Of a DNA stretch of 64,000 bases, positions 2,752 through 41,679 are shown one piece after another. Within the stretch, counting starts at the first letter, position 1; every line of letters begins with the position of its first letter. Origin of the DNA: Elusimicrobiota bacterium (GTDB lineage: Bacteria; Elusimicrobiota; UBA5214; JBBAAG01); the NCBI GenBank assembly GCA_041658405.1, contig JBBAAG010000002.1, forward strand, positions 453 through 64,452. Reading direction: 5' to 3'. The notes beneath the pieces are model-generated. The model had not been told where the DNA came from. It ran no database searches and was given only the letters and a program-made list of their open reading frames with translations. Position numbers and translations under genes: made by a program.

Positions 2752-3666
2752 CTATTGAATTTCAATAGTAAACTTTTCTACCATCTTTACCGGATGATAA
2801 GAAAGTTTTGCTTTTCTCAGTCCCGGGATTCCGAGGTCTTGCTCGCGGTTGATGTACTCATACTTACCCATGAGAGCGTGCTCACAAAAAAGGTTGTTCA
2901 ATGCCTGGTATATCCCGTGGAAGCCTTTTTCTGCTTTTTCTATGTGCACTATCGCGGTGGAGGGTTCTGTGGTTTCAGCAATGGTGAACCCCTGGATTTT
3001 ATCGTCAATCATTATTACTCCGCCAAAGAGGTGAAGTTCGTGAAAGTGTTTGAGCAGTTCTGCGGTACAAATGTTTTCGTAATGAAGCGAGAGGTTGTCT
3101 TCACATTTGCGTTCTTTACACCATTTTTGTTGTAATGCCAAACATTCGTCCAGCTGCGCTGCGGTTTCCAATGCGCGGTATTCGTATTTATAACGTTTCT
3201 TGAACTGTAACACAAAATTCTTTTTTGAGTGGTACTTCTGTCCCTCAAGGTTTGTCAGGCTTGATACAAGGTATATATAATCGTCGTTGTCACGGTCATC
3301 CGTGATGTTAAACTTCCCTGATTTACGGAGTTCATACGCTATGTCATTTGTTACTGTAACAATCTCGCCGTTTATCTTCTGCGATTTGTAGTAGTCCAGG
3401 CAGCGGGTATATATATCAACAATCTTTCCGTCTGCATTCTCCTTCGGGCCGATGGGGGAGAACATGAACCGTTCGTTTTCGATTGTGCAGTCAAGGCATA
3501 GGTAGCCGTTAAGCAGTGCGGTGTTGATTTTCAGGGTGTCACGGTAACCGTATAATATCCCAAGGGTCAACTCCGAAGGTTGGGGCTGGTATTTAAGCAG
3601 GTATGACAATACTTCGTCTTTCATCTCAAAACTTAACGGTATAAAATTAGGAAACTGCGGGATCAT
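2752..3666 (-). CDS. hypothetical protein, possibly DUF2156/acyltransferase-fold
   Basis: A 304-aa ORF packed tightly with the neighbouring minus-strand genes. The family assignment is from memory only. Confidence 0.4.
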   Translation of the reverse strand: MIPQFPNFIPLSFEMKDEVLSYLLKYQPQPSELTLGILYGYRDTLKINTALLNGYLCLDCTIENERFMFSPIGPKENADGKIVDIYTRCLDYYKSQKINGEIVTVTNDIAYELRKSGKFNITDDRDNDDYIYLVSSLTNLEGQKYHSKKNFVLQFKKRYKYEYRALETAAQLDECLALQQKWCKERKCEDNLSLHYENICTAELLKHFHELHLFGGVIMIDDKIQGFTIAETTEPSTAIVHIEKAEKGFHGIYQALNNLFCEHALMGKYEYINREQDLGIPGLRKAKLSYHPVKMVEKFTIEIQ

Positions 3667-3684
3667 TTATGCGTTCTTCAAATA

Positions 3685-3936
3685 CTATTTAATTTTCTTT
3701 GGTTTGCAGAGGTGTGACGCGTCAATCGCAGTGCGTCCGCAGCTGTTGCATATATATGCCAATTCTTTTACTTTATCATTGCATAGGTGGCGGATTGTCG
3801 GAATCATTGCACCGCACCAGTCACATTTTTCGGTATGTTTATCCGTAGGGACGCACATATGCCCGCCGTCTTTTGTTTTGCAATTACACGTAGGACATAC
3901 GTGTTTGTGGGTAGTATTAACTTTTTTTGTTGCCAT
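3685..3936 (-). CDS. small Cys/His-rich putative metal-binding protein
   Basis: An 83-aa ORF with about 13 Cys and 8 His arranged as repeated HxC and CxxC units (HVCPTCNC, HMC, CDWCG, HLC, CNSCG, HLC). It lies between blc and the upstream ORF with gaps of 18-25 bp. Confidence 0.45.
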   Translation of the reverse strand: MATKKVNTTHKHVCPTCNCKTKDGGHMCVPTDKHTEKCDWCGAMIPTIRHLCNDKVKELAYICNSCGRTAIDASHLCKPKKIK

Positions 3937-3960
3937 AAATTTACCAGGCCCTTCCTTAAT

Positions 3961-4497
3961 CTATTTTTCCGGATGTTCGGTTTTTTCTATTTTATTGAGA
4001 TCAAACCCTATGGTGGTTAGTTTGTTTAATATTTCAGTATACTTTAGTTCATCCATTTTGGGTGTACGGCTTAGGATCCACAAAAACCGGCGTTTGGGTT
4101 CGCTTACCACCGCGTATTCATAATCTTTGCCTAAATCAATTACCCAGTAATCCCCGGCGAACGGCCAGAAGAAGGTTACTTTAAGTTTTGTCGGGATATC
4201 CTTGTTAGGTATCCATGCAGTACCGGTGATTGAAGAAGGTTTCCCTGCTATTGAACCTTTATTAGCGCGGTTTACTACTTTTATTTTGCCGTTAGGTAAT
4301 AACGTATATTCTGCTGTTGCGGCGTAAAGATTTTTCTGGAAACTATTAGGGTATTTCGCAATTTCGTACCATAATCCCAGGTACCGCGAAAGTTCTAAAC
4401 TAGGGACGGTTTCTAACGGTTTAACTGTTGCGGATACTGCTAAAGTCGGTACCGTTAAAATAGAAAGTGCCAGTATCAACCTAATAGTTCTTAACAT
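3961..4497 (-). CDS. blc: bacterial lipocalin Blc (outer-membrane lipoprotein)
   Basis: Signal peptide, the lipocalin SCR1 motif YLGLWYEIAKYPNSFQ, and C-terminal GDYWVIDLGKDYEYAVVSEP...FLWILSRTP. Confidence 0.85.
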   Translation of the reverse strand: MLRTIRLILALSILTVPTLAVSATVKPLETVPSLELSRYLGLWYEIAKYPNSFQKNLYAATAEYTLLPNGKIKVVNRANKGSIAGKPSSITGTAWIPNKDIPTKLKVTFFWPFAGDYWVIDLGKDYEYAVVSEPKRRFLWILSRTPKMDELKYTEILNKLTTIGFDLNKIEKTEHPEK

Positions 4498-4610
4498 ATG
4501 CTTTATTTCTCCATTTCATTTTGTTTTCTTTATGTTCTATCATACAAGACTGTATTATACATACAATGCATCAATAAATCAAGAGGGACTATAGACAGGT
4601 TCTTTACACA

Positions 4611-4632
4611 AAAGTGTGCAAAGTGTGCAAAA
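4611..4632 (+). promoter_or_regulatory. tandem AGTGTGCAAA boxes upstream of M23 copy 1 (candidate operator/promoter element)
   Basis: AGTGTGCAA and AGTGTGCAAA lie directly in tandem and are followed by ACAGTTATTCT. The same boxes and ACAGTTATTCT recur upstream of copy 2. Confidence 0.35.
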
Positions 4633-4691
4633 ATTCGGGTATAGTATACAGTTATTCTAGGAGTTAAATGATATAATTAATCGACGCTAAA

Positions 4692-4705
4692 GTGAATATA
4701 TTCAC
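4692..4705. promoter_or_regulatory. perfect 14-bp palindrome GTGAATATATTCAC in the copy-1 leader
   Basis: Seen directly in the sequence. It has TGAAT..ATTCA half-sites and is absent from copy 2. Confidence 0.3.
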
Positions 4706-4789
4706 AGTTGCTCCATGTATGGCATAAATATTGCAACAATGGTTGTTCGAGAAACAAAAAGAAACTGGAAAGAAAGAAGGAGAAAGAAA

Positions 4790-5275
4790 ATGAAAAGTTT
4801 AAGAGTCGTTCTGGTAGCAGCCTTAGCATTAGCAATAGCAGCGCCGTCAGCGTTTGCATGGTATCTTTATTGGCCAACAAGCGGACGTATCAGCAGCGTA
4901 GTTGGCTGGAGAATCTGTCCTTTCCATGGCCGTGAATATCATCCCGGTACAGACATTGCAGCGCCCGGTGGACGCCGGATTGGTTCAATCGCAGCGGGTA
5001 GAGTTACTTCAGCGGGTTGGGCAGGCGGATACGGGAAATCAGTGAATATGAGCCACGCAAGCGGATATACAAGCCGGTATTCACATATGAGCTCAATCTC
5101 AACACGTCGCGGTGCATATCTTGCATCAAAAGGTAAAGTTGGTGCAGTAGGAACGACCGGCAGCAGCACTGGTAACCATCTTGATTTCGGGATCAAAAGA
5201 TATGGTTCAGTAAAGGCGCCGAGATGTTCTAAAGGGCAGTATAAAACAGCCGGAACAAGAATATATCTCCGGTAA
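4790..5275 (+). CDS. secreted M23-family (lysostaphin/LytM-like) peptidase, paralog 1
   Basis: AGGAGAAAGAAAATG RBS and a signal peptide MKSLRVVLVAALALAIAAPSAFA. M23 motifs HPGTD (HxxxD), SRYSHMS, and GSSTGNHLDFGI, where HLD replaces the canonical HxH. Confidence 0.75.
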   Translation: MKSLRVVLVAALALAIAAPSAFAWYLYWPTSGRISSVVGWRICPFHGREYHPGTDIAAPGGRRIGSIAAGRVTSAGWAGGYGKSVNMSHASGYTSRYSHMSSISTRRGAYLASKGKVGAVGTTGSSTGNHLDFGIKRYGSVKAPRCSKGQYKTAGTRIYLR

Positions 5276-5303
5276 TAAGATAGAATAAGTTAGTTAACGA
5301 AGG

Positions 5304-5340
5304 CTCCCTTGGTTGAAGAAACCAAGGGAGTTTTTGTTTG
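5304..5340 (+). terminator. rho-independent terminator
   Basis: Stem CTCCCTTGGTT / AACCAAGGGAG, loop GAAGAA, then TTTTTGTTTG. Confidence 0.7.
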
Positions 5341-5423
5341 TATAGCATTAAAGGTAGTTAAAGTAATTCAACAGTTGTATTGAAAATATGTATAGAGCAT
5401 ACTGTAGAATATCGTGCAATACA

Positions 5424-5459
5424 AGTGTGAAATAAGTGTGCAAATTACACAGTTATTCT
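5424..5459 (+). promoter_or_regulatory. AGTGTGaAAt / AGTGTGCAAA boxes plus ACAGTTATTCT upstream of M23 copy 2
   Basis: Counterpart of 4611-4659. The two boxes are spaced 11 nt apart. Confidence 0.35.
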
Positions 5460-5631
5460 GCTAAACCGACAAAACATTATTTTTAGCCATCACAATATTT
5501 GTATTGTAATATAATCAAAATAACGATAATTGCGGTATACCCCACCCACTCTTTTGTGTATTGGCACGAATATTGCAACAATGGTTGTTCGAGAAACAAA
5601 AAGAAACTGGAAAGAAAGAAGGAGAAAGAAA

Positions 5632-29744: not shown

Positions 29745-30527
29745 TTACTTCAACCCCAAAACGTCTTGCATATCATATAATCCCGCAGGTTTTGAGGTAA
29801 GCCATTTCGCGGCGTATACCGCGCCGGAAGCAAACGCGTTACGGCTATGCGCGCGATGCGTTATCTCTACGCGTTCCCCTGCCCCAACGAACATAATCGT
29901 GTGGTCCCCAACGATATCGCCTCCGCGAACCGCGTGGACGCCGATCTCAGTTTTTTTTCTCGCCCCAACCAAGCCTTCACGGCCATAGACCGCGTCAGCC
30001 TTGAGGTCGCGGTTGAGCGTATCAGCAATAATCTCTGCAAACCGCGCAGCAGTACCAGACGGCGCGTCCTTCTTTTGGTTGTGATGCGCTTCAATAATTT
30101 CTACGTCGTAACCCTCAAGTTTTTGCGCAACTTCGCGTATGGTTTTGAATAAAATGTTCACTCCGATACTCATATTTGGCGCATGAACCACCGCGATTTT
30201 TGCGCTTGCAGTTTTTACCGCCAAGAGCTGGTCCGGGTTCAACCCGGTCGTGCCGATAACAATTGGTTTGCCAAGTTTCATAGCGGTTTCCGCGTGTTCT
30301 ACTGACGCTGTGGGGGATGAAAAGTCGATCACAACGCCGCTTTTGGCAAACGCTGCGTCAATGTTATCCGTAATTTTTACTGCGGTGCCGATAACCGTGT
30401 TTCCAACCGCCGGGCTGGCAGATGCTTCCACCGCGCCGACAATCGTAAATTCTTTGTCCGCAACGGCTAACGCGAGTATCCGAGTGCCCATCCGCCCCGC
30501 TGCGCCGCATACTGTTAAACTTATCAT
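29745..30527 (-). CDS. dapB: 4-hydroxy-tetrahydrodipicolinate reductase
   Basis: VCGAAGRMG Rossmann motif and a C-terminal DapB domain. Confidence 0.85.
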   Translation of the reverse strand: MISLTVCGAAGRMGTRILALAVADKEFTIVGAVEASASPAVGNTVIGTAVKITDNIDAAFAKSGVVIDFSSPTASVEHAETAMKLGKPIVIGTTGLNPDQLLAVKTASAKIAVVHAPNMSIGVNILFKTIREVAQKLEGYDVEIIEAHHNQKKDAPSGTAARFAEIIADTLNRDLKADAVYGREGLVGARKKTEIGVHAVRGGDIVGDHTIMFVGAGERVEITHRAHSRNAFASGAVYAAKWLTSKPAGLYDMQDVLGLK

Positions 30528-30586
30528 AATCGTAAACTCCTCATAAATCTATTAGTTATTGTCAATACCCAATGCCTATAATAATA

Positions 30587-30700
30587 CTATTTTTCCACAT
30601 ATCTCTCAAAATACTTTCTTACCTCAGTATTTGTAAAATGTACATAACATCCCTTCAAACCTCTTGAAAGCGAGGTTCTATAAATGTTTTTAATATACTG
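30587..30700 (-). pseudogene. C-terminal remnant of a second DUF2075-family gene
   Basis: The minus-strand translation is YIKNIYRTSLSRGLKGCYVHFTNTEVRKYFERYVEK*. This aligns to the last 36 residues of the intact DUF2075 protein (IIKNTYKTLMTRGTKGCYVYFTDKETEEYFMSRIGK*) at about 50% identity, including KGCYV.FT. A stop lies immediately upstream. Confidence 0.6.
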
Positions 30701-30809
30701 TTAAAATTTATTTACTTTTTGAAGTGTTGGATCTTTTGTTTCATTTATAGCAACCTTTAAAACAACGGTTGATATATATGACTTTTTGTTTGTATCTATT
30801 TGGGGTATA

Positions 30810-32660
30810 TTATTTACCAATTCTCGACATAAAATACTCTTCCGTTTCTTTATCCGTAAAATACACGTAACACCCCTTCGTCCCCCGAGTCATGAGCGTT
30901 TTATAAGTATTTTTGATAATGTTGCCTGCAACTTCCTTCGCTTTCTCAAGATTATCTTCTAGCATCTTCCTGTACCCATTTAACGATTTATCCGTCCTCG
31001 CCCGGTTCGAAGGTACAGTCACAATCTCACCGTCACGGCATAACAAGTCTGGTCCGACAATAACACCGATATAATCAAGTTCCAACCCCTGGCACGTGTG
31101 TATACATCCCGCTTCTGTAACAGACTGAGGGTCGATTATCCATTTGTTCCCGTAACTTTTAAAATTCCATTTTATCTTAAAATCCCATCCTGGTATAACG
31201 ATATCATACGCATCGGGATCCTTAGCACTTACCCAGTTCCAACAGTATCCCGCTACGATACGCGCTTTATTGTTAATCTGATTTTTCTCAAATATCATAT
31301 CTCTTAGCTCCACTGGGCTTTTCATCACACGAAAGTCGTATTCTTGACGAGACAAATACATATTCGCTGTTGGCCGTTTCTGCAAAGTATTATCCAGCCA
31401 TGCAAGGTATCCATCGGAACCGTTACACCTGAACTGCGAGGGTAGATCCATCTTAATCACCACTGCACCCAACTTTTTGGCCCAACACACTATTTCGTCA
31501 GTATCCCCAATATCTTTCAATGTAACCTTCTGATCTTCGTCTAAGAAGAATACGCACGTCCTAGCAGCATTGATTAACTCCTTTACCTGGTTTTCTCCTG
31601 AATTCTGAAACATCCCACTTCGTTCGTTCAACCTATGCGCTTCATCTACGATCAGACAATCGAAAACATTTGTGGCACAGTCAACAAACTTACCTGAACC
31701 ACAAAAAAGGTTAGCAATCCTTGTCTTCTTCATAGTCCCCGTGAGTTTCACTTCGTACACCGTCCGCGGAGCGGAATTTTTTGTAACATACCTCGCGTTG
31801 TACTGTTTCTGGGTAGAAGCAACTAATAAATTCACAGCTACGACTGACTTACCGGTACCTGCGCCACCGTTGACAATCAACACTTGTTTTTTTCCGTTAC
31901 GTATCATTTCTAACACGGTTTCGTACACTAACTTCTGTTCGTCTATCAGTACAAACTCTTTATTCCCTTTCATCAGAGAAGCCAACGAGTCTGCTAAGTT
32001 TTTTGACGGTTTTATCCGCCCGCTTTCGATGAGGAAAATACATTCAGACTTGTCTCCATATTTTACGAACTGTTTTATAAACTCCCTGAGTTTTATCGCA
32101 TCGTTTTTAAGGAATACAGGCGCTTTCGATAAATGTTCCTGATAAAAAGAGTTGGTGATAACGTCATCTGGTATGTAGTTGTGTAGGTACGAACAGGGTT
32201 TCAATGAGATGCTGTAATCTAGCACCGCTTCGTTATAATCTTCTAGCAATGCAGCGTACGACCAGGCCTGGTAGCTCGGGTGTTGGCATTCATGCATACC
32301 GCCATTAACAAACGTTTTGACAACTGCATCCTGTTGAGTTAGTTTAGCGGACTCCCATTGTTTGAGTTCAATTATGATCAAATGGGGTGCGTTTTTGGTA
32401 TCCTGCCCGCTGATGATAAAGTCTATCCTCCTTGAAGAAGACGGTATGACATACTCTATCGCTACTCCACAATCCGTTGGAATATCAGGATCGCTAAGCA
32501 CGGTTTCCATGTACCGCAAAGAGTTTTGATACGCTCTAATTTCTGCAGGGGAATAACCCGATACATGTTTTAATTTAAGAGAATTCACTACTTTATCTGT
32601 GAGAGTATTATTTAAAACATCATTCGAAAACTCTGTTTTTGTTGCCGTATAAATAATCAT
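30810..32660 (-). CDS. DUF2075-family protein: N-terminal PD-(D/E)xK nuclease-like domain plus P-loop/DEAH helicase-like ATPase
   Basis: RIDFIISG...IIELKQWE (D...ExK), Walker A GGAGTGKS, motif II DCLIVDEAHRL. 616 aa. Confidence 0.7.
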   Translation of the reverse strand: MIIYTATKTEFSNDVLNNTLTDKVVNSLKLKHVSGYSPAEIRAYQNSLRYMETVLSDPDIPTDCGVAIEYVIPSSSRRIDFIISGQDTKNAPHLIIIELKQWESAKLTQQDAVVKTFVNGGMHECQHPSYQAWSYAALLEDYNEAVLDYSISLKPCSYLHNYIPDDVITNSFYQEHLSKAPVFLKNDAIKLREFIKQFVKYGDKSECIFLIESGRIKPSKNLADSLASLMKGNKEFVLIDEQKLVYETVLEMIRNGKKQVLIVNGGAGTGKSVVAVNLLVASTQKQYNARYVTKNSAPRTVYEVKLTGTMKKTRIANLFCGSGKFVDCATNVFDCLIVDEAHRLNERSGMFQNSGENQVKELINAARTCVFFLDEDQKVTLKDIGDTDEIVCWAKKLGAVVIKMDLPSQFRCNGSDGYLAWLDNTLQKRPTANMYLSRQEYDFRVMKSPVELRDMIFEKNQINNKARIVAGYCWNWVSAKDPDAYDIVIPGWDFKIKWNFKSYGNKWIIDPQSVTEAGCIHTCQGLELDYIGVIVGPDLLCRDGEIVTVPSNRARTDKSLNGYRKMLEDNLEKAKEVAGNIIKNTYKTLMTRGTKGCYVYFTDKETEEYFMSRIGK

Positions 32661-32671
32661 TATAATCCCCT

Positions 32672-33016
32672 CTATAGCTGCGTATATTTTGTATGTTTCC
32701 CTTTTGATTTCCGAACAGGATACTTTGTTTGATTCTTTTTAAGTTTTTTTGCCAAGGCTATCAAGATATCAATTTTAAGATCATGACTCATCAACAATAC
32801 CCAATACAGAACATCAGCCAGTTCATCCCCTATTGCATCTTTGTGTTGTATTACGTATTTCTCAATCTCTTCATTATTTTTCCATTGAAAATGTTCAAGA
32901 ACTTCAGTTGCCTCAAGAACAAGCGACAACGCAACGTCTTTTGGATTATGAAACTGTTTCCAATCACGTTTTGTACGGAATTCAATAATTTTCTTAGTGA
33001 TACTTTTTAGATTCAT
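32672..33016 (-). CDS. MazG-like nucleotide pyrophosphohydrolase (small all-alpha NTP-PPase)
   Basis: 114 aa with EATEVLEHF and DELADVLYWVLLMSHDL motifs. Its stop is 11 bp before the DUF2075 start. Confidence 0.65.
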   Translation of the reverse strand: MNLKSITKKIIEFRTKRDWKQFHNPKDVALSLVLEATEVLEHFQWKNNEEIEKYVIQHKDAIGDELADVLYWVLLMSHDLKIDILIALAKKLKKNQTKYPVRKSKGKHTKYTQL

Positions 33017-33125
33017 AGTTCCCGTGTCTAAAAAACACTGTTTATCGCATCAGTGAAAGCACAGGAATTTGTCAGACGAATAGGAGTAAGGACTTTTATC
33101 GTTCGAAGATTTAATCGTAACTCGA

Positions 33126-35090
33126 CTAATTACTTTTGTTCAACATGTCTTTTGCTATCTTATATTCTTTTTTAAAATCTATCCCAATATCCAAGTTGGG
33201 GTCTATTGTTTGAAACGCTACATACATAAACGCTAATAATTGTAAGCCCGAAAATTCTTTGTCAGGGATGCTTGTTAAATGATATTTTTTCTCGGTATCC
33301 AAAGGATCAATTCCTTGAGTCCCGATTTTGGCTATCTCAAATCCGGCTTTTGTGATTTCTTCATTGGATTTGTCTTGAAAGTATTGTAATGCAGAAAGAC
33401 AATACATTACTGTAGCCATGTGTTTAGGAGATTGTTCAGAAAAAGAGACGTTATTCTTTGGATTAGTTTTTTCAACCGAGTCAATGAAAGTTAATGAAGC
33501 AGGATAGTTTTTACGATATTCGTCTTCCGAAACTATAGAAAAATAGGATGCTAAATTCAATTTCTTCGCCCAATTGTTTATCAATTCGTATTCCATTGCG
33601 GGCCTATGCATATCCTTGTTTTTGAAATATTCTTTGTAAAGTTCGTTTGATATGCGTAATTGTTGTTGCGTAGGATTAAATTTATAGATCAAATCAATAC
33701 CAAATAATTCTTTAAATTGCAGCGCGTTTACGATATTCAATATTTTGCTGGCATCAGTGACCAATGGAGGTATGATTTCTGCGGCTCTTGTGTCTGTTAC
33801 TGCCTTTATTCCTTCAGAAATTAAATTGTGTAACGACAAAAATTGATACGGCCTTAAATCCGGATGAGTATTGTATAGATAATTCTCAATAAATAAATCG
33901 ATAGGCGTGTTAAAGATTTGCCGGTTTATTCCATCAAACAAAGCCGAAATAAAGTCAGATATGTTTTTGTCATTAAGCCCTTGTTGATTTAATCCATTAA
34001 TTGTTTTTTCTGTCGAAACAATAAATGCTTTCTTGTGTTCATTAGTGGAGATGAAAAGTTTATTTGCCCCCACCTTTCGTGCTTCAAGGTTAAAATATAG
34101 ATGAACCAGTTCATGCATCACGAGATGCTCGACAGCGGGATAATCGTTTTTATAACGTATTACATGCGAACCCTTATTATAATTTTCAGCGATCTCTATT
34201 TTTGCAGCAGTTGGGATAGAAGCGTCTTCAACAATTTCAATTGGTTTATTCGATTGCTCTTCAAGGATTGATCTATACTGACGAAATATTTCTTTTCCAT
34301 CAATATGTCCAATATACTTAGTTGCAGTTTCCTGAGCAAGCGTTAGGATGTGGTTGAATAACTGGTTGCTACTACATGTAGGGGGGGGGGAATTTGTCAT
34401 GCTTTGAATAGCAAAATCAAACGCCTTCAAATAATCTTTTTTTATATCGTTTATTAAACCTAATGCAAAAGTTGTATGCGGATACTTTGGGTCAATCTCA
34501 TATGCCATCTCAAAATATTTTATTGCTTGTTCAATTTTTCCGGACTGCATAAGATTTGCGCCCAGATTATTGATAGCAATATTATCCCGAGGATTTATCT
34601 TAATTGCCTGGTCATAATATTTGGTCGCAGATGTAATATCGTTTTTATGTTTTGAAAGAATGTTGCCCATCATGATAAGTGCAAAACAATTTTTAGGATC
34701 CCATTTTAAAGCGTCTATTAAACAATTCAATGCTTCTTCTGAATTCCCTTCATCGGAATATATTTGTCCTAACACCCTGTGATACTCTGAATTTGCTGGA
34801 TTTGTTTCTATTAGTTTCATTAAGATTGGTTTAGCATCTCTGAATCTTCTTTTTTCACACAAGCTTATCACTGTGTCAAAATCTTTTTTCTGCGTAGCTA
34901 TTAAATTAATATCAATCGAAATTGAAACAATATTTTTAATTTCATCAATTTCAACTTTAGGTTTATATGGGCCAAAAGTGTAATAACTAATCAACTCTTT
35001 CCTCAACTTATCAATATTACTACCGTCCATCACTTTGGTTTTCGGAAAAAGCTCAAACAAAAAATTGTCTAGTTTGTGAATAATAATCAT
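33126..35090 (-). CDS. TPR-repeat protein with a central HExxH (zincin-like) motif
   Basis: 654 aa with about 5 TPR repeats N-terminally and HLVMHELVHLYF. An in-frame C10 tract encodes SPPP. Confidence 0.6.
   Translation of the reverse strand: MIIIHKLDNFLFELFPKTKVMDGSNIDKLRKELISYYTFGPYKPKVEIDEIKNIVSISIDINLIATQKKDFDTVISLCEKRRFRDAKPILMKLIETNPANSEYHRVLGQIYSDEGNSEEALNCLIDALKWDPKNCFALIMMGNILSKHKNDITSATKYYDQAIKINPRDNIAINNLGANLMQSGKIEQAIKYFEMAYEIDPKYPHTTFALGLINDIKKDYLKAFDFAIQSMTNSPPPTCSSNQLFNHILTLAQETATKYIGHIDGKEIFRQYRSILEEQSNKPIEIVEDASIPTAAKIEIAENYNKGSHVIRYKNDYPAVEHLVMHELVHLYFNLEARKVGANKLFISTNEHKKAFIVSTEKTINGLNQQGLNDKNISDFISALFDGINRQIFNTPIDLFIENYLYNTHPDLRPYQFLSLHNLISEGIKAVTDTRAAEIIPPLVTDASKILNIVNALQFKELFGIDLIYKFNPTQQQLRISNELYKEYFKNKDMHRPAMEYELINNWAKKLNLASYFSIVSEDEYRKNYPASLTFIDSVEKTNPKNNVSFSEQSPKHMATVMYCLSALQYFQDKSNEEITKAGFEIAKIGTQGIDPLDTEKKYHLTSIPDKEFSGLQLLAFMYVAFQTIDPNLDIGIDFKKEYKIAKDMLNKSN
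34381..34390. repeat. G10 homopolymer; C10 on the coding strand of the TPR-HExxH gene
   Basis: Counted directly. It encodes S-P-P-P in frame. Confidence 0.8.
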
Positions 35091-35101
35091 TTTTTATTAT
35101 A

Positions 35102-35509
35102 AATTTCTTTCAAAACATTTTCTTTAACACAATTTATTATACATTATCGCTTCACATCGGGACAATACTGGTGTTTATCCGTAACAAGCCGAAAGACCGG
35201 AAAAATACAATATTGTTTATCAACGCAGCGGAGTGTTACGAGTCCGTGAAAAACCAAAACAAGCTGCGGGACGAGGATAACACAAAAATTGTTTAAGTAT
35301 TTGAGGAAAACAAAAACGTGGACCGTTTCGCGCGGGTCGTGGAATTAGACTAAATCCGGGGTAACGAGTATAACCTCAACATCAGCCGGTACGTGGATAT
35401 TACTGAACCGGAACCGGTCGTTGACGTAAAGGACGCGCTTGCGAAACTGCGCGAACTTGAGAAACAACGCGATGCCGCTGAGAAGAAAATGAACGAGTAC
35501 TTGAAATAG
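35102..35509 (+). pseudogene. hsdM: hsdM (type I R-M methyltransferase) 3' remnant with two in-frame stops
   Basis: A single frame reads ...IFFNTIYYTLSLHIGTILVFIRNKPKDRKNTILFINAAECYESVKNQNKLRDEDNTKIV* VFEENKNVDRFARVVELD* IRGNEYNLNISRYVDITEPEPVVDVKDALAKLRELEKQRDAAEKKMNEYLK*. This matches the conserved HsdM C-terminus (LFYNTGI..ILV..KNK, VLFIDAS, NQN.L.DE.I.KIV, YNLNISRYVD). TAA stops lie at 35294 and 35351. The 5' roughly 350 codons are missing. Confidence 0.7.
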
Positions 35510-35609
35510 CTGGGGTATGACTAGGATAATAAAACTTGACAAAATAAAGGAAAGTGGTAATAATATATACTGATACATCTAAAATGGATGTGTGAGTATA
35601 TAATTAGAT

Positions 35610-36203
35610 ATGAAAAATATTGATATAGATAAGCCTTTAGTAATGTTAGGAGTGTTGCTTGAAGCCAATAATACGGTATCGCCCATTAACTTGGTGGTAT
35701 GCGGCGGTGCGGCGCTTATTATTACTGGTACGATAACCCAGAGGGTGGTTACAAAAGATGTGGATGTTATTGCAATAATTTCAAACAATTTAGTTGATAT
35801 TATAGAATGCGCAAAATTACCGGAAGCCGTAATTGATGCAAAAGACAAAGTAGCGGCTAACTTGGGGTTAGATACTGATTGGTTGAATACACAGTTTTCA
35901 CATATAGTCAAAGACGGGTTACCGAAAGGGTTCGAATCAAGGTTGATCCCAAAAAAATACGGTAAGTCTTTGACAGTGTATTTTGTTGGCAGGGAAGACC
36001 AAATATGTTTCAAATTACTTGCAGCTGCGGATTCTAAACTAACTAAACATTTTGATGATTTACAGGAGTTGAAGCCCACAGCAGTAGAAATTCAAAACGC
36101 TGTTGACTGGATACTCGGACACGAATCAAGAATAAATTATAAATATGATATTAAATACATTGTAAGAAGGCTAGGATATGAAACAATCGCTGATAGAATT
36201 TAA
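35610..36203 (+). CDS. minimal nucleotidyltransferase-fold protein, AbiEii/DUF1814-like
   Basis: LVVCGGAALIITGTITQRVVTKDVDVIAII is a GG...DxD NTase signature, close to AbiEii GGTAL...S.DIDF. 197 aa. Confidence 0.55.
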   Translation: MKNIDIDKPLVMLGVLLEANNTVSPINLVVCGGAALIITGTITQRVVTKDVDVIAIISNNLVDIIECAKLPEAVIDAKDKVAANLGLDTDWLNTQFSHIVKDGLPKGFESRLIPKKYGKSLTVYFVGREDQICFKLLAAADSKLTKHFDDLQELKPTAVEIQNAVDWILGHESRINYKYDIKYIVRRLGYETIADRI

Positions 36204-37203
36204 AACAGCGTATATCTATAAAATTACCAACATCCTCTGGCGGCAATGGACGGCACTCGGGGTTCCCGGTACTATTGATGTTGAAGATAAAGGGGTTGTG
36301 GATCCAGAAGCGTTGATCCCCGCAACCTGCCTGTTTGGCCGTTACGACAGCCGGTTGTTTGACGAAATGTTGAACTGGCTGTACATTAACGGTAAAGTTG
36401 TCAATATCCAGAGATTGAAAAACATTATTGCAAAAGAAATGTTTGTAAACGCGGATATTATTCCGGCAATCGCCGAGTTTTTGAATACTACGAGTAAGTA
36501 CCGGTTCTTGAAGTGGAAAAAAATACTGCCTGCTGCCAATAATGTTACGGACAAAAAAAACTTTTTTTATTTCCGCGATGGGAACGCTATGGAACAGTTT
36601 GGCCCGGCTGACGCGATATTCGAAAAGTACGGATACCTGCGCGGGCCGGTGAAGTTGAGAGAGCACACTTTGCCGGTATATTATCGGTACGGCAGCGATG
36701 TTATATTCAAACTTCGCGCGTTATTCGGGGTACGTACTCGCGCGGACATTGTTTTGTACTTATTAACACACGAGTACGCGCATCCCAGGGAAATCGCGCG
36801 AGATTTGTATTACGCTCCTAAGTCGGTACAGGATATTCTTATCGAAATGTCGAATTCCGGGCTCGTTAATATGCGGCCGGAAGGAAAAGAAAAACAGTAT
36901 TTCCTTGATAAAACCAGATGGCATGAATTCCTGAAACTACACGATAGGCATGTGGAGTGGATAACCTGGCCGGCAGTGTTCCGCGCATTAGAGATTATAT
37001 GGTTAAAAATCAGCGGGGAGAAAGCCGACGGGTATAGCAAATTGTTATTATCGTCGGTACTACGTGAGGTTATGGATGAAGTGAAATATAAAATTGAAGC
37101 CGCTGGGATTAACAATGTTTTGACGAATCCCAAGTTTTATCTTGGGGAACAGTACGTGGATGTTTTTTTCGCGGATATGAACAGGTTGTTTGAGAAATTA
37201 TGA
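36178..37203 (+). CDS. 341-aa protein with a predicted winged-helix DNA-binding domain, partner of the NTase
   Basis: RADIVLYLLTHEYAHPREIARDLYYAPKSVQDILIEMSNSGLVNMRPEGKEKQYFL looks like a wHTH. Its start overlaps the NTase gene by 26 bp, and its stop overlaps the next ORF by 4 bp. Confidence 0.5.
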   Translation: MKQSLIEFKTAYIYKITNILWRQWTALGVPGTIDVEDKGVVDPEALIPATCLFGRYDSRLFDEMLNWLYINGKVVNIQRLKNIIAKEMFVNADIIPAIAEFLNTTSKYRFLKWKKILPAANNVTDKKNFFYFRDGNAMEQFGPADAIFEKYGYLRGPVKLREHTLPVYYRYGSDVIFKLRALFGVRTRADIVLYLLTHEYAHPREIARDLYYAPKSVQDILIEMSNSGLVNMRPEGKEKQYFLDKTRWHEFLKLHDRHVEWITWPAVFRALEIIWLKISGEKADGYSKLLLSSVLREVMDEVKYKIEAAGINNVLTNPKFYLGEQYVDVFFADMNRLFEKL

Positions 37204-37439
37204 AACTAAAAACTTTTAATACTAGTCATAAAACAAAGAAAACGCCGGCCGGGGAAATCCCAGTGGACTGGGGAACTATTGAACTAAATAAAATAGTGAA
37301 TATAGAAAAGGGTAAAGTTCCAGAATTGATTGAACAACCCGAATGGATGTTTCGTACAGCCAACGGGTATAGTTACGACGAGCTCGAAGCGTTAGCCACA
37401 AAAATTATGGACTTAGCCCGTACGCGGCTCGGGAATTGA
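37200..37439 (+). pseudogene. hsdS: hsdS (type I R-M specificity subunit) remnant, 79 codons
   Basis: ...EIPVDWGTIELNKIVNIEKGK matches the HsdS N-terminal TRD start (P.GW....L.EI....G). It is far too short for a functional two-TRD HsdS. Confidence 0.5.
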
Positions 37440-38155
37440 AAATGGATGAAAAAAGTGTGGTAACGTTTGGTAGCCAAAATATTGAGTTTGGCATCATCCG
37501 CAGCGCCCGGCGAACCATAAGCATCATTGTCGACCCTTACCTTGGCGTCTACCTCCGGGTACCGCGATATATTGGGTTGCCCAAAATCCAGCAAATCGTG
37601 AAAACAAAAGCTAAATGGATTTCTGATAAGATGGAATACATAAACAAGCTTGGCGAGATGCCGAAGAAGAAAGAGTTTGTTTCCGGCGAAGCGTTTTCGT
37701 ACCTCAACCGCCAGTATCGTTTATTGGTAGAAGAGTCAAACATAAATGAAGTGTTTTTTTTGGGTAACTATATCGTTGTAGAAACTACACATATAAACCA
37801 TCCGCGGTTAATCCGTGTGTTAATAGAAGAGTTTTACAAACAAAAAGCGCGGAAAGTGTTGGTGCGGCGAGTAGAGATTTATTGTAAGAAACTCAACCTC
37901 CCGCTCCCGCCGTTGACTGTAGCGAATCAAACCAAGAAATGGGGTAGTTGTAACAGTAAGGGGCATATACGCATAAACTGGCGGATAGTAATGGCGCCAA
38001 TAGTGCTTGTAGACTATATTTCAGCCCACGAGTTGTGTCATGTGATACAAAAGAATCATTCTACAGAGTTTTGGAAACTACTCGGCAGTATTATGCCGGA
38101 CTACGACACCCGCCGTGAACGGTTGCGTAGAGAAGGGTATAAATACTTTTTCTAA
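37436..38155 (+). CDS. DUF45/YgjP-like (M48/SprT-like) metal-dependent hydrolase
   Basis: WGSCNSKGHIRINWRIVMAP...YISAHELCHVIQKNHSTEFW carries WGSC and HExxH...NHS motifs. The family is commonly linked to type I R-M loci. Confidence 0.7.
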   Translation: MKMDEKSVVTFGSQNIEFGIIRSARRTISIIVDPYLGVYLRVPRYIGLPKIQQIVKTKAKWISDKMEYINKLGEMPKKKEFVSGEAFSYLNRQYRLLVEESNINEVFFLGNYIVVETTHINHPRLIRVLIEEFYKQKARKVLVRRVEIYCKKLNLPLPPLTVANQTKKWGSCNSKGHIRINWRIVMAPIVLVDYISAHELCHVIQKNHSTEFWKLLGSIMPDYDTRRERLRREGYKYFF

Positions 38156-38158
38156 ATT

Positions 38159-40777
38159 CTATTTTTTTGCGATATCCGGCAGCATAAACCGCCAGATCGG
38201 CAAGTTAAACTGTTCCCCGGCCGATATCTCAAGTTCTTTAATAACATCTTCCCAGCCGGGTACACCGCGGATTGACTGCGGGGAGAAAGGATTCGCTGCG
38301 AAGTACACAACTTTTCCTTTTCCAAACCCGCGAATCACCACACCAGGATTACCGTCGGATAACGTTGCCGCTACCGTCGCTTTCGGGTCTACCACTTTTA
38401 CGGTTACTGCTGTGTTGGTCCATCCGGTAGAACGGCGTTGGGGTTTGTATAACACAAACTTCTGCCCGGCTTTCATCGATTTCAACGCATCCGTCCCCGT
38501 GCCTACCAACGCATCACTCAGGTTCTCGTCCCCGACTTGCACGCCAAAAAGTTCTTCCTGATACTTCGCGAGGCTCGTTCCGTCCGGCGCTAGGGTAAAC
38601 GCTTTCGAATCCCCGACAACCAGTGTCCCGCCTGCCGAAGTCCAGTCGCGTAAACGTTTGACCACTTCTTCCCGCTGCAGCCACGCGTAAGGAACATAGA
38701 TAATTTTGTAGTCCTCAAGTTTATCCGCGCCATCCAATATTTTATCGTCGGCAATAAACCGGAACCACACGCCAAGTTTTTCGCCTAACCACGCATAAAT
38801 TGTGTAAAGTTCGTCTGCGTAGATCGAGTTAACTTCGCTGAGATTGGTGTCCTGGGATACAAAAATTGCGGTTGATGTTTTCTCAGGAAACTTAATTTTC
38901 TTCATCGTGGTAACAGTTTTTGATACGTGCTTCATCATTTCCCATCGCGGCGGGTCGGTTACCATCGGCGCGTCCGACGCGTAGTATTCTATGCATACCG
39001 CACCGGTCTTCATACACTGGCTTGCCCATTCGCGGATATCTTCCGGCAACGGTTTGTACCCGTCATAAAAAAATGCTTGCATAATAGTCCATACCGGCTT
39101 CCCACCGATATCGTTCAAAAATTTTGTGCCGAACCCGTGGTTATAAATCCCGCGGCCACGGGTACGCCCATGCGCTTCATCCGCCGATGTGGTGTACGGA
39201 TCGCATAACGCGAGGTCCATTGTTTGCGCCATTTTCCAGTAATCGTACATAGACAACCCGCCCATAAACCAGTAGTCGCAGGGTTGCCATAACGCTGTGG
39301 GGTCGATGGATTTCAGCGCGTCTCTCATCCGTATACGCGATTCTACAAATTTATCACTTGCCCAGCGGTTATATGCCAGCCAACTTAACAGCGTGTCAGT
39401 ATCTGGTTTGGTTGTAACAAATTTTGTTCCCTTAGCGACATTAGCTCCTTTTATTGATGGTACTGGGATACCGTATTTTCCGTAGCCATACTTTTCTTTG
39501 ACTTCCACCTGCGCGTTTATCCAAAACGGTATGATATCGATAAATTCAGGCCCTGCCGGGCTTAAAGTCGGCTCGTCCACTCCGCGGTAAACATATACTG
39601 CGCCAGTTTCTTTGTGGGTAGTAACAATATTTTTCAGTGCTTCAATTACGACGTCAACATAAACAGGATCCGCGAGGAATAGGCGTTTTCTCCCTCCAGC
39701 AGCTGGATGTATTACAGGCGAACCTTTCTTTTCTGCAACTGCCGCAACAGGTGAGGTTTCTACCATAAGCCATGATTTGGCATTATACTTTTTGCGGTAC
39801 TCATTGAAAATCGCGCTTGACCCGTGAGGGATCAGCATTCCGCATTCCACTTGTTGGTCAAGGTATGACCGTAAATGTTTTTCGTATGCTTTAGGATCTT
39901 TTTTAAACTGTTCCTGCATATACTGCGGCAATTGTGCGGTGCGTATGTCGTGGTTCCACGACGCGCAAGCGTAGTTTCCCGGTTCGTTGTACAACACTTC
40001 ATCAAAAACCGGACGGTCGCGTTTGACCCCGTAGTTCGTTGGTTCCATATCGCCGTAATCCAGGCGTTCAATATAGTTGTGTTTAAACGATAATGTGGCG
40101 AATCGTTCCGGCTGGTTAAACTTCCCGCGGATGGGAGACCATGTGCTTTGTTCCATAGAATTAGGTACCTGCCGGGTAAAGTTTATGCGGTACTCGTCGT
40201 TAATACCGCCAAAATCGGTGAACGGCATTACAAAGTCGGCTGTCCAAAAGGTTTTATCTATCTTTGTAGAAGTCTTAAAATTACCCTTCCACTTTTCATC
40301 CGATGTTTTCCCGGTTTGGTCTTCAGTAACAACTTCGTGGTTCACATAAACAACGTTTTTGGTGTTTAATACCCAATGAAATGATTCCAGCGGTGAGGGT
40401 GATAAAAATACTTCTACACAATCATCTTTCCAGACATTACTCCCGTTAATTGTTACCGTCGCTTCAATTTTTCTGGGTTCTGGTTCTTCGCATTTGAACT
40501 GAACAAACAACGCGTTATCGTCGTAGGTTACCCTTACTTCAGTCTGCCGTACTGCAAGGTTACCGCTGCCGTTATTAAGATAAAATCCTGTTATTGGTAC
40601 AATTTTATTCCAGTCCGCCTTTTGTCCTTTAGCCAGTTTTGTTATTCCTGTTTTATTAACAACCACGGCATCCGCTTTCTTCACTGCGATAGCTGTTTCC
40701 GCAAATAAGTGTGTTATCTGTGGATATAACAGTGCTGACGTAGCTGCAATAACAACAACGCGTATTAATTTGTTCAT
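38159..40777 (-). CDS. secreted CBM9/DOMON-like + GH42-like protein, paralog of 22487-25813
   Basis: 872 aa with a signal peptide. CBM9-like N-terminus (WNKIVPITGF...LFVQFKCEEPEP...DDCVEVFLSP), KYGYGKYGIP, GGTLVVGDSKAF. Confidence 0.55.
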   Translation of the reverse strand: MNKLIRVVVIAATSALLYPQITHLFAETAIAVKKADAVVVNKTGITKLAKGQKADWNKIVPITGFYLNNGSGNLAVRQTEVRVTYDDNALFVQFKCEEPEPRKIEATVTINGSNVWKDDCVEVFLSPSPLESFHWVLNTKNVVYVNHEVVTEDQTGKTSDEKWKGNFKTSTKIDKTFWTADFVMPFTDFGGINDEYRINFTRQVPNSMEQSTWSPIRGKFNQPERFATLSFKHNYIERLDYGDMEPTNYGVKRDRPVFDEVLYNEPGNYACASWNHDIRTAQLPQYMQEQFKKDPKAYEKHLRSYLDQQVECGMLIPHGSSAIFNEYRKKYNAKSWLMVETSPVAAVAEKKGSPVIHPAAGGRKRLFLADPVYVDVVIEALKNIVTTHKETGAVYVYRGVDEPTLSPAGPEFIDIIPFWINAQVEVKEKYGYGKYGIPVPSIKGANVAKGTKFVTTKPDTDTLLSWLAYNRWASDKFVESRIRMRDALKSIDPTALWQPCDYWFMGGLSMYDYWKMAQTMDLALCDPYTTSADEAHGRTRGRGIYNHGFGTKFLNDIGGKPVWTIMQAFFYDGYKPLPEDIREWASQCMKTGAVCIEYYASDAPMVTDPPRWEMMKHVSKTVTTMKKIKFPEKTSTAIFVSQDTNLSEVNSIYADELYTIYAWLGEKLGVWFRFIADDKILDGADKLEDYKIIYVPYAWLQREEVVKRLRDWTSAGGTLVVGDSKAFTLAPDGTSLAKYQEELFGVQVGDENLSDALVGTGTDALKSMKAGQKFVLYKPQRRSTGWTNTAVTVKVVDPKATVAATLSDGNPGVVIRGFGKGKVVYFAANPFSPQSIRGVPGWEDVIKELEISAGEQFNLPIWRFMLPDIAKK

Positions 40778-40800
40778 TCAAACGGTTCTCCATTAATGAT

Positions 40801-41679
40801 TTATTTAAGTAATCCGTAGGCCGACATTTCTTTTCTTAACTTTTCTTTATTTGCATCATCCATCGGCGCTAATGGCAACCGCAGTTCGTCACTGCATAAG
40901 CCCATTATCCCCGCTGCGGTTTTTATCGGGATAGGGTTAGTTTCGATAAACAATGTTTTTATCAGTGTAAACGCTTTTAAATGTAACGCCTGTGCGGTTT
41001 TTAGGTCGCCCTTGAGGTACGCAGCGCACATGTCATGTACATCTTTAGGCGCAATGTTTGCCAGTACAGAGATCACGCCGTACCCGCCGACGGACATTAT
41101 CGGCAGCGTTAATGAATCATCACCGGATAATACCGGTATTTTATCACCGAATTGTTTAACTAGTTCCGATGTTTGGTCGACATTACCCGACGCTTCTTTC
41201 ACACCGACAACTAAACCTGTTTCTTTCGCTACTTTTATAATAGTATCCGGCAGCATGTTAACACCTGTCCGGCCAGGGATGTTATAGATTACCATAGGAA
41301 TATTAACATCCTTCGCTACTTTTTTGAAATGCAGGACCAATCCTTTTTGTGTGGGTTTATTGTAATACGGTACAACCAGTAGGACAGCATCCGCTCCAAC
41401 TTTTTTCGCGTACTCTGACATCTCAATAGTTTCAGTTGTGGAATTCGCGCCGGTACCTGCGATTACAGGTACGCGTTTTTTTGCCTGTTCCACTACAACT
41501 TCTATCACGCGTTCATGTTCTTCATACGATAATGTCGGTGACTCGCCTGTTGTCCCGCAGGGGACCAGGCCGTTGGTACCGTTCTTTATCTGAAACTCCA
41601 CAAGTTCACGTAATTTTTCTTCATCCACCTTATTGTTTTTAAACGGTGTTACAAGCGCAACAAAGGATCCTTTTAACAT
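40801..41679 (-). CDS. dapA: 4-hydroxy-tetrahydrodipicolinate synthase
   Basis: VALVTPF, GTTGESPTLS, and the length fit DapA. Confidence 0.85.
   Translation of the reverse strand: MLKGSFVALVTPFKNNKVDEEKLRELVEFQIKNGTNGLVPCGTTGESPTLSYEEHERVIEVVVEQAKKRVPVIAGTGANSTTETIEMSEYAKKVGADAVLLVVPYYNKPTQKGLVLHFKKVAKDVNIPMVIYNIPGRTGVNMLPDTIIKVAKETGLVVGVKEASGNVDQTSELVKQFGDKIPVLSGDDSLTLPIMSVGGYGVISVLANIAPKDVHDMCAAYLKGDLKTAQALHLKAFTLIKTLFIETNPIPIKTAAGIMGLCSDELRLPLAPMDDANKEKLRKEMSAYGLLK

Follow-up and report, generated by a model that had tools for sequence, protein, structure and literature searches.

The 64,000-nucleotide stretch analysed here (hereafter the window) belongs to contig JBBAAG010000002.1 of an Elusimicrobiota bacterium (assembly GCA_041658405.1). 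Between positions 35102 and 38155 it carries, on the forward strand, a pseudogene of the methylase gene hsdM (35111–35524), an intact gene for a 197-aa nucleotidyltransferase (NTase) of the DUF6036 family (35610–36203; PF19502), an intact gene for a 341-aa winged helix-turn-helix (wHTH) partner that falls into no Pfam family (36178–37203), a 79-codon open reading frame (ORF) that reads as an in-frame fusion of the hsdS 5′ end to the hsdR 3′ end (37200–37439), and an intact gene for a ygjP-like (DUF45) metallohydrolase (37436–38155, with TTG 37436 or ATG 37442 as start codon). We consider it highly probable that a type I restriction-modification (R-M) operon was reduced here to a relic by two deletions, one of which left the hsdS::hsdR chimera, and that the NTase–wHTH pair inside it is an autonomous module.

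The frame at 35102–35509, taken for the C-terminal part of HsdM in the preliminary description, reads GTILVFIRNKPKDRKNTILFINAAECYESVKNQNKLRDEDNTKIV, stop, VFEENKNVDRFARVVELD, stop, IRGNEYNLNISRYVDITEPEP, and this assignment was borne out. The frame matches Pfam N6_Mtase over profile positions 226–306 of 311 (E-value, 4.5 × 10−19), TIGR00497 (hsdM) over positions 412–512 of 515 (E-value, 6 × 10−16; 58 bits against a cut-off of 242.75), and eleven PADLOC type I methyltransferase models, the best of which is MTase_I (E-value, 3 × 10−23). A profile of HsdM tails matches it with an E-value of 6.9 × 10−34. The proposed tblastn comparison revealed 55% identity (E-value, 1.5 × 10−43) to residues 352–504 of the 505-aa HsdM from locus L085, the closest HsdM found, with the likeness strongest over the last ~70 residues. 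Credible similarity begins at about 35111 (QNIFFNT); an upstream extension of the BLAST match to 35042 was not convincing and was discarded. The remnant comprises the last ~125 codons, about residues 375–505 of an intact HsdM. As had been noted, it is interrupted by two in-frame TAA stops, located at 35294–35296 and 35351–35353. Because TAG at 35507–35509 stands in place of a conserved Glu and the similarity (LGY) runs on to 35518, this codon is probably a third premature stop, and the ancestral hsdM stop is probably that at 35522–35524, five codons further on. Neither the N-terminal part of HsdM, already described as missing, nor any second HsdM-like sequence was found in the 64-kb window, and no full-length HsdM with AdoMet-binding and catalytic (NPPF/Y) motifs is present in it.

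The 79-codon ORF had been described as an hsdS stub, which holds for its first part only. A profile covering the N-terminal 60 residues of twelve HsdS proteins from related operons matches residues 1–45 with an E-value of 1.5 × 10−16, better than any other of the 1062 open frames in the window; the shared head can be followed by eye (window, MKLKTFNTSHKTKKTPAGEIPVDWG; L015, MPTPNLQASRKTKKTTAGDIPVDWG). The PADLOC model Specificity_I also matches the ORF (E-value, 7 × 10−5). The HsdS-like portion is limited to the first ~49 residues: Pfam Methylase_S gives no match, and the two target-recognition domains and the conserved central and C-terminal regions of an HsdS are absent.

The remainder of the ORF resembles the end of HsdR. 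The two nearest YgjP relatives whose surroundings could be used (P0139 and P0141; 47–49% identical) are each encoded directly 3′ of hsdR, and the HsdR proteins of these neighbourhoods end in RADGYQFDEIETMIAKIMDLARARLVK and RAKGYQFDEIETLTAKIMDLARVRLVR. The window ORF ends in RTANGYSYDELEALATKIMDLARTRLGN, identical to these HsdR ends at 16 of 24 positions and in register with the stop codon. When the 60-residue HsdR tails of L085 and L086 were compared with all six frames of the window, both matched 37359–37430 (E-values, 3 × 10−7 and 4.5 × 10−7), the runner-up matches reaching only 0.1–0.4, and the similarity ends two residues short of the stop in both proteins. For the complete L085 HsdR (993 aa), the sole match in the window is at the same place (E-value, 5 × 10−5), and an independent profile, built from nine more remote HsdR tails, ranked the ORF first of the 1062 frames (E-value, 0.066). 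The earlier statement that no hsdR is present thus needs amendment, since the last ~26 hsdR codons lie inside the 79-codon ORF; an HsdR with nuclease, SF2 motor and C-terminal domains is indeed missing. The ORF begins in an ATGA overlap with the stop codon of the wHTH gene, and its stop overlaps the ygjP start, so that the hsdR stop/ygjP start overlap of intact operons is retained. Based on the HsdS head, the HsdR tail in register and this overlap, the ORF is, on sequence comparison, an in-frame chimera of hsdS codons 1–~49 (37200–37346) and the last ~26 codons of hsdR (chimera codons ~54–79; 37359–37436), left by one deletion with its junction at about 37347–37358.

The final gene was correctly recognised as DUF45/YgjP-like. 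Its product matches PF01863 over profile positions 1–206 of 207 (187.6 bits against a cut-off of 26; E-value, 3.8 × 10−55), and the motifs WGSC, HELCH and NHS, including the HExxH metal site, are readable in the translation. In L002, L009, L064, L074, L076, L085 and L086, ygjP lies directly 3′ of hsdR, and its start codon either overlaps the hsdR stop or adjoins it. Operons of this type I family usually end with ygjP, in agreement with the earlier remark that such genes commonly accompany type I systems. The window gene resembles the other YgjP-like/DUF45 genes next to hsdR in its full-length Pfam match with HExxH and in its position at the hsdR 3′ end, and differs in that its hsdR partner is cut to 26 codons; it is now probably read through from the transcript of the two cargo genes. 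In the 377-aa protein P0185, the HsdR C-terminal domain (PF11867) is naturally fused to a YgjP-like domain, which hints at a functional tie between YgjP and the HsdR C-terminus.

For comparison with related loci, relatives of the 341-aa protein were scanned in one genome per species, which gave at least 500 loci; 80 of these, together with four found otherwise, made up a sample of 84 loci, 82 of them distinct. In 14 of the 84 the pair is embedded in the order hsdM-NTase-wHTH-hsdS(-hsdR-ygjP). The order in intact relatives is (half-hsdS)-hsdM-NTase-wHTH-hsdS-hsdR-ygjP, and the part from hsdM to ygjP is found in L002, L009, L064, L074, L076, L028, L063 and others. In L002, for example, genes for a 197-aa half-size HsdS, a 498-aa HsdM, a 215-aa DUF6036-like protein, a 337-aa wHTH homologue (42% identical to the window 341-aa protein), a 417-aa HsdS, a 1064-aa HsdR and a 246-aa YgjP follow one another in one direction. 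The half-size HsdS (~197 aa, one target-recognition domain) encoded upstream of hsdM (L002, 7269–7862; L009, 7266–7871; eight other loci) is found alongside the full hsdS that lies downstream. L085, which has the R-M system most closely related to the lost one, has other cargo in another slot: a SMODS-like 362-aa protein and a 278-aa protein are encoded between hsdS and hsdR (3625–5566), and Prok-E2, ThiF, TCAD9 and BubE genes are found downstream of ygjP.

The window agrees with the intact type I operons with embedded accessory genes (L002, L009, L064, L074) in gene order and in the protein families of its remnants, namely the HsdM C-terminus, the HsdS head SRKTKKTxxGEIPVDW, the HsdR C-terminus and the terminal ygjP, and differs from them in that its M, S and R remnants are all nonfunctional. 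Embedded accessory genes are familiar from the prr locus of Escherichia coli, which has the order hsdM-hsdS-prrC-hsdR; here, an NTase and a wHTH protein rather than an anticodon nuclease are encoded, and they lie between hsdM and hsdS. Starting from such an operon, two deletions would account for the present arrangement. The left one would have removed everything upstream of about hsdM codon 375 and joined the rest to an unrelated block of TPR, MazG and helicase genes on the other strand, after which the hsdM tail would have gathered its three stop codons. The right one, in frame by chance, would have begun near hsdS codon 50 and stopped ~26 codons short of the hsdR end; it amounts to at least ~4.2 kb (~370 hsdS codons and ~970–1040 hsdR codons), and to more if further genes lay between. 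The methylase, specificity and restriction functions are all lost at the window locus, and the intact relatives, with their identical gene order, uphold the earlier view that R-M function was lost while two intact cargo genes were kept between the remnants of M and S.

Two other accounts of the remnants were weighed. The 79-codon ORF could be no more than a truncated hsdS, as the preliminary description had it, followed by unrelated sequence, with hsdR lost separately and fully. HsdS models do match only residues 1–49, and the HsdR-like part is short (~26 residues); nevertheless, the tails of the L085 and L086 HsdR proteins find this very segment at 3 × 10−7 with the next match at 0.1, two thirds of the aligned 24 residues are identical up to two residues before the stop in both HsdRs, the stop and the ygjP start overlap just as they do where the operon is intact, and the profile of nine other HsdR tails also places the ORF first of 1062, which makes this account very improbable. 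Slightly less probable still is that the locus represents, in place of decay, a type I arrangement that is silent or phase-variable, with a spare hsdS cassette for recombinational switching, or else an artefact of assembly. Extra partial hsdS copies are common in type I loci (PMC7394358), and the window derives from a metagenome-assembled genome. Against this, intact hsdM, hsdS and hsdR are nowhere to be found in the 64-kb window, no inverted repeats link the stub to a second hsdS copy, and the window shows no further similarity to hsdS, hsdM or hsdR. The loss of 375 hsdM codons and ~1400 hsdS/hsdR codons is beyond base-calling error, the identical arrangement occurs in at least three contigs, and the 341-aa protein is recorded in four public sources.

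Two points weigh against the deletion account of the relic. The relic lies between dapB and dapA, and no intact hsdRMS was found at the same chromosomal site among the relatives from a metagenome scan with DapA, as the preliminary description had proposed to look for. The closest of these are only 54–68% identical in DapA, dapA directly adjoins dapB in most of them, and R-M genes are absent from the few that have something between the two. Dating of the decay by divergence of the HsdM tail was tried and abandoned, the 36–48% identity to relatives lying within the range of an intact divergent subfamily (e.g., L074). In one distant relative (L089, 12997–13506), dapB is directly followed by a 170-aa ORF that has an NTase-like GGG...DLD motif.

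Both cargo proteins look intact, and the claim that 35610–36203 and 36178–37203 are intact ORFs was upheld. The NTase scores 40.5 bits with PF19502 (cut-off, 23.6), and the pol-beta motif hG[GS]x9-13Dh[DE]h is present as G32-G33...D50-V-D52, invariant or nearly so in 66 homologues. The C-terminal helical lobe is conserved as well (R128, D130, K135, D141, H147, D150, E160, W167). Motifs I and II of the DUF1814 type are found, and the K135...D141...H147..D150 pattern resembles the DUF1814 C-terminal motifs at the level of an unaligned pattern. The protein departs from the family at 5 of 43 conserved columns. Residues conserved in at least 94% of homologues are replaced at Q44 (R), F96 (P), E172 (D) and R174 (S). 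Similar numbers of departures were counted in other Elusimicrobia copies (L030, six; L038, five; L017, three), so that decay was rejected as their cause and they look like a lineage trait. The wHTH protein departs at 1 of 50 conserved columns.

The best matches of the AlphaFold model of the NTase (pLDDT 88) among solved structures are chains of the Mycobacterium tuberculosis toxin MenT1, 8an5, 8an4 and 8rr5 (E-values, 0.03–0.4; TM, 0.35–0.44); for 8an5 and 8an4, the Foldseek E-values are 0.03–0.1 and the TM values 0.41–0.44. Further matches are 5uvd, a fungal NTase-like protein, and AbiEi (6y8q). A single-sequence search of solved structures with both proteins yielded nothing, and the profile search gave 5uvd for the NTase (E-value, 0.003), ArsR-type HTHs for the partner, and nothing else. 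No paper was found in a literature search for DUF6036.

The 341-aa protein is modelled with a pLDDT of 91 and a pTM of 0.90. It consists of an N-terminal helical domain (residues 1–170), in which W21, W24, D42, R55, R59, D62, R79 and others are invariant, a central winged helix of the ArsR/MarR type (residues ~185–250), and a C-terminal helical domain. Pfam has nothing above its cut-offs for this protein, only weak HTH matches, and 6y8q is absent from its top 50 structure matches. Some members of the family (P0253, P0202, P0322, P0328) are considerably longer, 641–1738 aa; one is fused to SLFN AlbA_2 and one to DUF5677, and the others carry extensions without a Pfam family. Fusions to HsdS were looked for among these long forms, and none was found.

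The pair is no passive passenger of this locus but a widespread module in its own right, autonomous and found by itself in most genomes. A profile of the 341-aa family found 2418 representatives of 50%-identity clusters at E-values up to 10−3, 638 of them at up to 10−30. NTase and wHTH genes are neighbours for 83 of the 85 wHTH gene copies in the 84 loci, and the 26-nt overlap between them was found in all three gene-called loci. In about three quarters of the 82 distinct loci, R-M genes are absent within 10 kb. The neighbours of these stand-alone pairs are mixed, housekeeping genes with a sprinkling of defence genes, the latter including AAA_14/DUF4143 (PDC-S01), AbiEi, pAgo, a Pycsar cyclase, IetA and AbiD. 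On one Verrucomicrobiia contig (L029, 5112–8487), two NTase–wHTH pairs are arranged tail to tail. The pair had no match in 72,556 plasmids, and a search for phage carriage gave one distant IMG/VR match, no PHROG and no viral structure match.

Erosion of R-M genes next to the pair is not confined to the window. In L010, L050, L053 and L056, only a 3′ remnant of hsdM is left directly upstream of the pair, with breakpoints that differ from locus to locus (about HsdM residues 430, 474, 353 and 425, respectively). L011 has a 22-codon hsdS head after the pair. In L057, an hsdS-like head follows the pair and probably represents another stub; the contig ends 192 nt past the wHTH gene, so that a longer hsdS is possible there. 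The window is one of at least seven independent cases among the 82 distinct loci in which the R-M genes were eroded and the pair was kept.

Signals that could serve the expression of the pair were found directly upstream of it. Between the hsdM remnant and the NTase start codon, and ~45 nt upstream of the latter, lies a promoter-like site on the forward strand, TTGACA-17 nt-AATAAT (35536–35564), which is the best sigma-70-type match in 34900–38400 (11 of 12 positions; a match to the consensus only). It is followed, between the -10 box and the NTase ATG, by an imperfect palindrome at 35564–35602 with 16-nt arms (35564–35579 and 35587–35602) that are 88% complementary and separated by a 7-nt spacer. 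Of 60 loci compared, 19 have a palindrome beyond shuffled expectation (p ≤ 0.05) in the 110 nt upstream of the NTase start, where 3 would be expected, and it usually ends 0–20 nt before the start codon. The palindrome sequence is partly common to related loci, TGCTATTTAT...ATAAATAGCA being present in several loci of Verrucomicrobiota and Acidobacteriota. The palindrome of the window could be the operator at which the winged-helix protein acts, or else a hairpin of the 5′ untranslated region; its appearance would fit the operator of a dimeric winged-helix autorepressor. The chain of NTase, wHTH, chimera and ygjP genes, with overlapping starts and stops, would then probably be transcribed from its own promoter at 35536–35564 under a palindromic operator.

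As to the function of the pair, we tentatively propose, at somewhat less than even confidence, that it is a toxin-antitoxin (TA) or abortive-infection (Abi) module similar to MenT and AbiE, which has outlived its host operon. The toxin-like interpretation draws on the MenT1 chains at the top of the NTase structure matches and from the presence of the catalytic GG...DxD. MenT1-4 of M. tuberculosis and AbiEi/AbiEii of Streptococcus agalactiae are NTase TA systems, and MenT/AbiEii toxins are DUF1814 NTases that add nucleotides to tRNA acceptor ends and thereby block tRNA charging (PMC7450476, PMC10435456); DUF1814 toxins have four conserved motifs, including a family-specific motif IV (PMC7450476). 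By analogy, the DUF6036 NTase might be a growth-arresting effector, perhaps one that adds nucleotides to tRNA 3′ ends, and the wHTH protein might neutralise it and repress the operon at the palindrome. Loss of the pair would then be harmful, and deletions eroding the R-M genes would stop at its borders, so that addiction would explain why the pair has been spared, and also why, in several phyla, it is still accompanied by tails of hsdM and heads of hsdS.

The comparison with MenAT and AbiE reveals likeness and difference. In common are two overlapping genes, one for a ~200-aa NTase of the pol-beta fold with GG...DxD and a helical C-terminal lobe and one for a winged-helix partner, as well as defence-rich neighbourhoods and MenT1 as the best solved-structure match. 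AbiEi-type antitoxins have an N-terminal wHTH and an AbiEi C-terminal domain, whereas in the 341-aa partner the wHTH is central. Several further points weigh against the proposal. The NTase belongs to Pfam DUF6036 rather than DUF1814; its match to MenT1 is weak (TM about 0.42), and no structure matched it at an E-value of 0.001 or below. PF08843 (AbiEii/DUF1814) does not match at E-values up to 0.1, nor does any PADLOC AbiE model. The partner is far larger than typical antitoxins and belongs to no AbiEi, MenA or COG5340-type family (no match to Pfam AbiEi_1/2/3/4 or to the AbiEi models of PADLOC); its matches in the PDB are restricted to the winged helix, the two other domains having no matching fold. 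The NTase gene comes first, the reverse of the order in AbiE and MenAT, neither protein is covered by PADLOC or PHROGs, and the promoter and operator of the window are matches to patterns only. In its furthest-reaching form, the proposal would make the pair a previously undescribed TA/Abi family with MenT/AbiE-like chemistry, a new partner architecture, a reversed gene order, preferential nesting between hsdM and hsdS of one type I family, and addictive survival; this fuller version we hold with still a little more reserve.

Alternatively, the pair could be an accessory of R-M systems, either a controller of their expression or a second-line effector fired when R-M is inhibited, the window copy being an orphan on its way to loss. 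PrrC, which acts with EcoprrI and is encoded within a type I operon, offers an analogy; the pair sits exactly between hsdM and hsdS of one type I family in ~17% of the sampled loci, and the wHTH stop abuts or overlaps the hsdS start. This explanation nevertheless appears unlikely: most distinct loci, about three in four, lack R-M genes within 10 kb, the immediate neighbours of the pairs in them are heterogeneous, L085, the nearest relative of the lost R-M system, does without the pair, and both window proteins keep nearly all of the family-conserved residues. A TA or Abi module that persists by addiction is the reading that we carry forward, at the tentative strength given above.

The stretch is enclosed in a 10.3-kb insert (30528–40800) between dapB (29745–30527, minus strand) on the left and dapA (40801–41679, minus strand) on the right. 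In ~60 distant relatives, lysA, dapF, dapA, dapB and an aminotransferase gene are contiguous, with 10–150 nt between dapA and dapB. From left to right, the insert contains helicase, MazG-like and TPR genes on the minus strand, the R-M relic on the plus strand, and, in its right part, a gene for a CBM9/GH42M protein on the minus strand. The G–C content is 0.29–0.45 over the left and middle parts of the insert, in comparison with 0.45–0.53 in the flanks. Neither flanking direct repeats nor tRNA genes were found when mobile-element borders of the insert were sought. The minus-strand genes adjoining the relic (30810–35090) are co-oriented and encode a Schlafen-group-3/DUF2075 helicase, which resembles the AbiO/Nhi-like model of PADLOC (E-value, 4 × 10−12), a MazG-like pyrophosphatase and a 654-aa TPR protein; these three may form a further defence unit. 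The hsdM remnant now constitutes the region upstream of the 654-aa TPR gene.

Taken by itself, the relic is ordinary, one more dead R-M system, but its deletion history is unusually readable. Together with that history, the value of the locus lies in an unstudied gene pair that settles within type I operons and persists after their decay. The breakpoints in at least six other genomes differ, yet in every case erosion has halted at the edges of this two-gene module, a pattern that points to a large NTase–wHTH pair missing from the defence and TA catalogues that were searched. If the pair is indeed a TA or Abi module, it would represent a new branch of the MenT/AbiE nucleotidyltransferase toxins, and would provide a concrete case of an addictive module shaping the erosion of a defence island.

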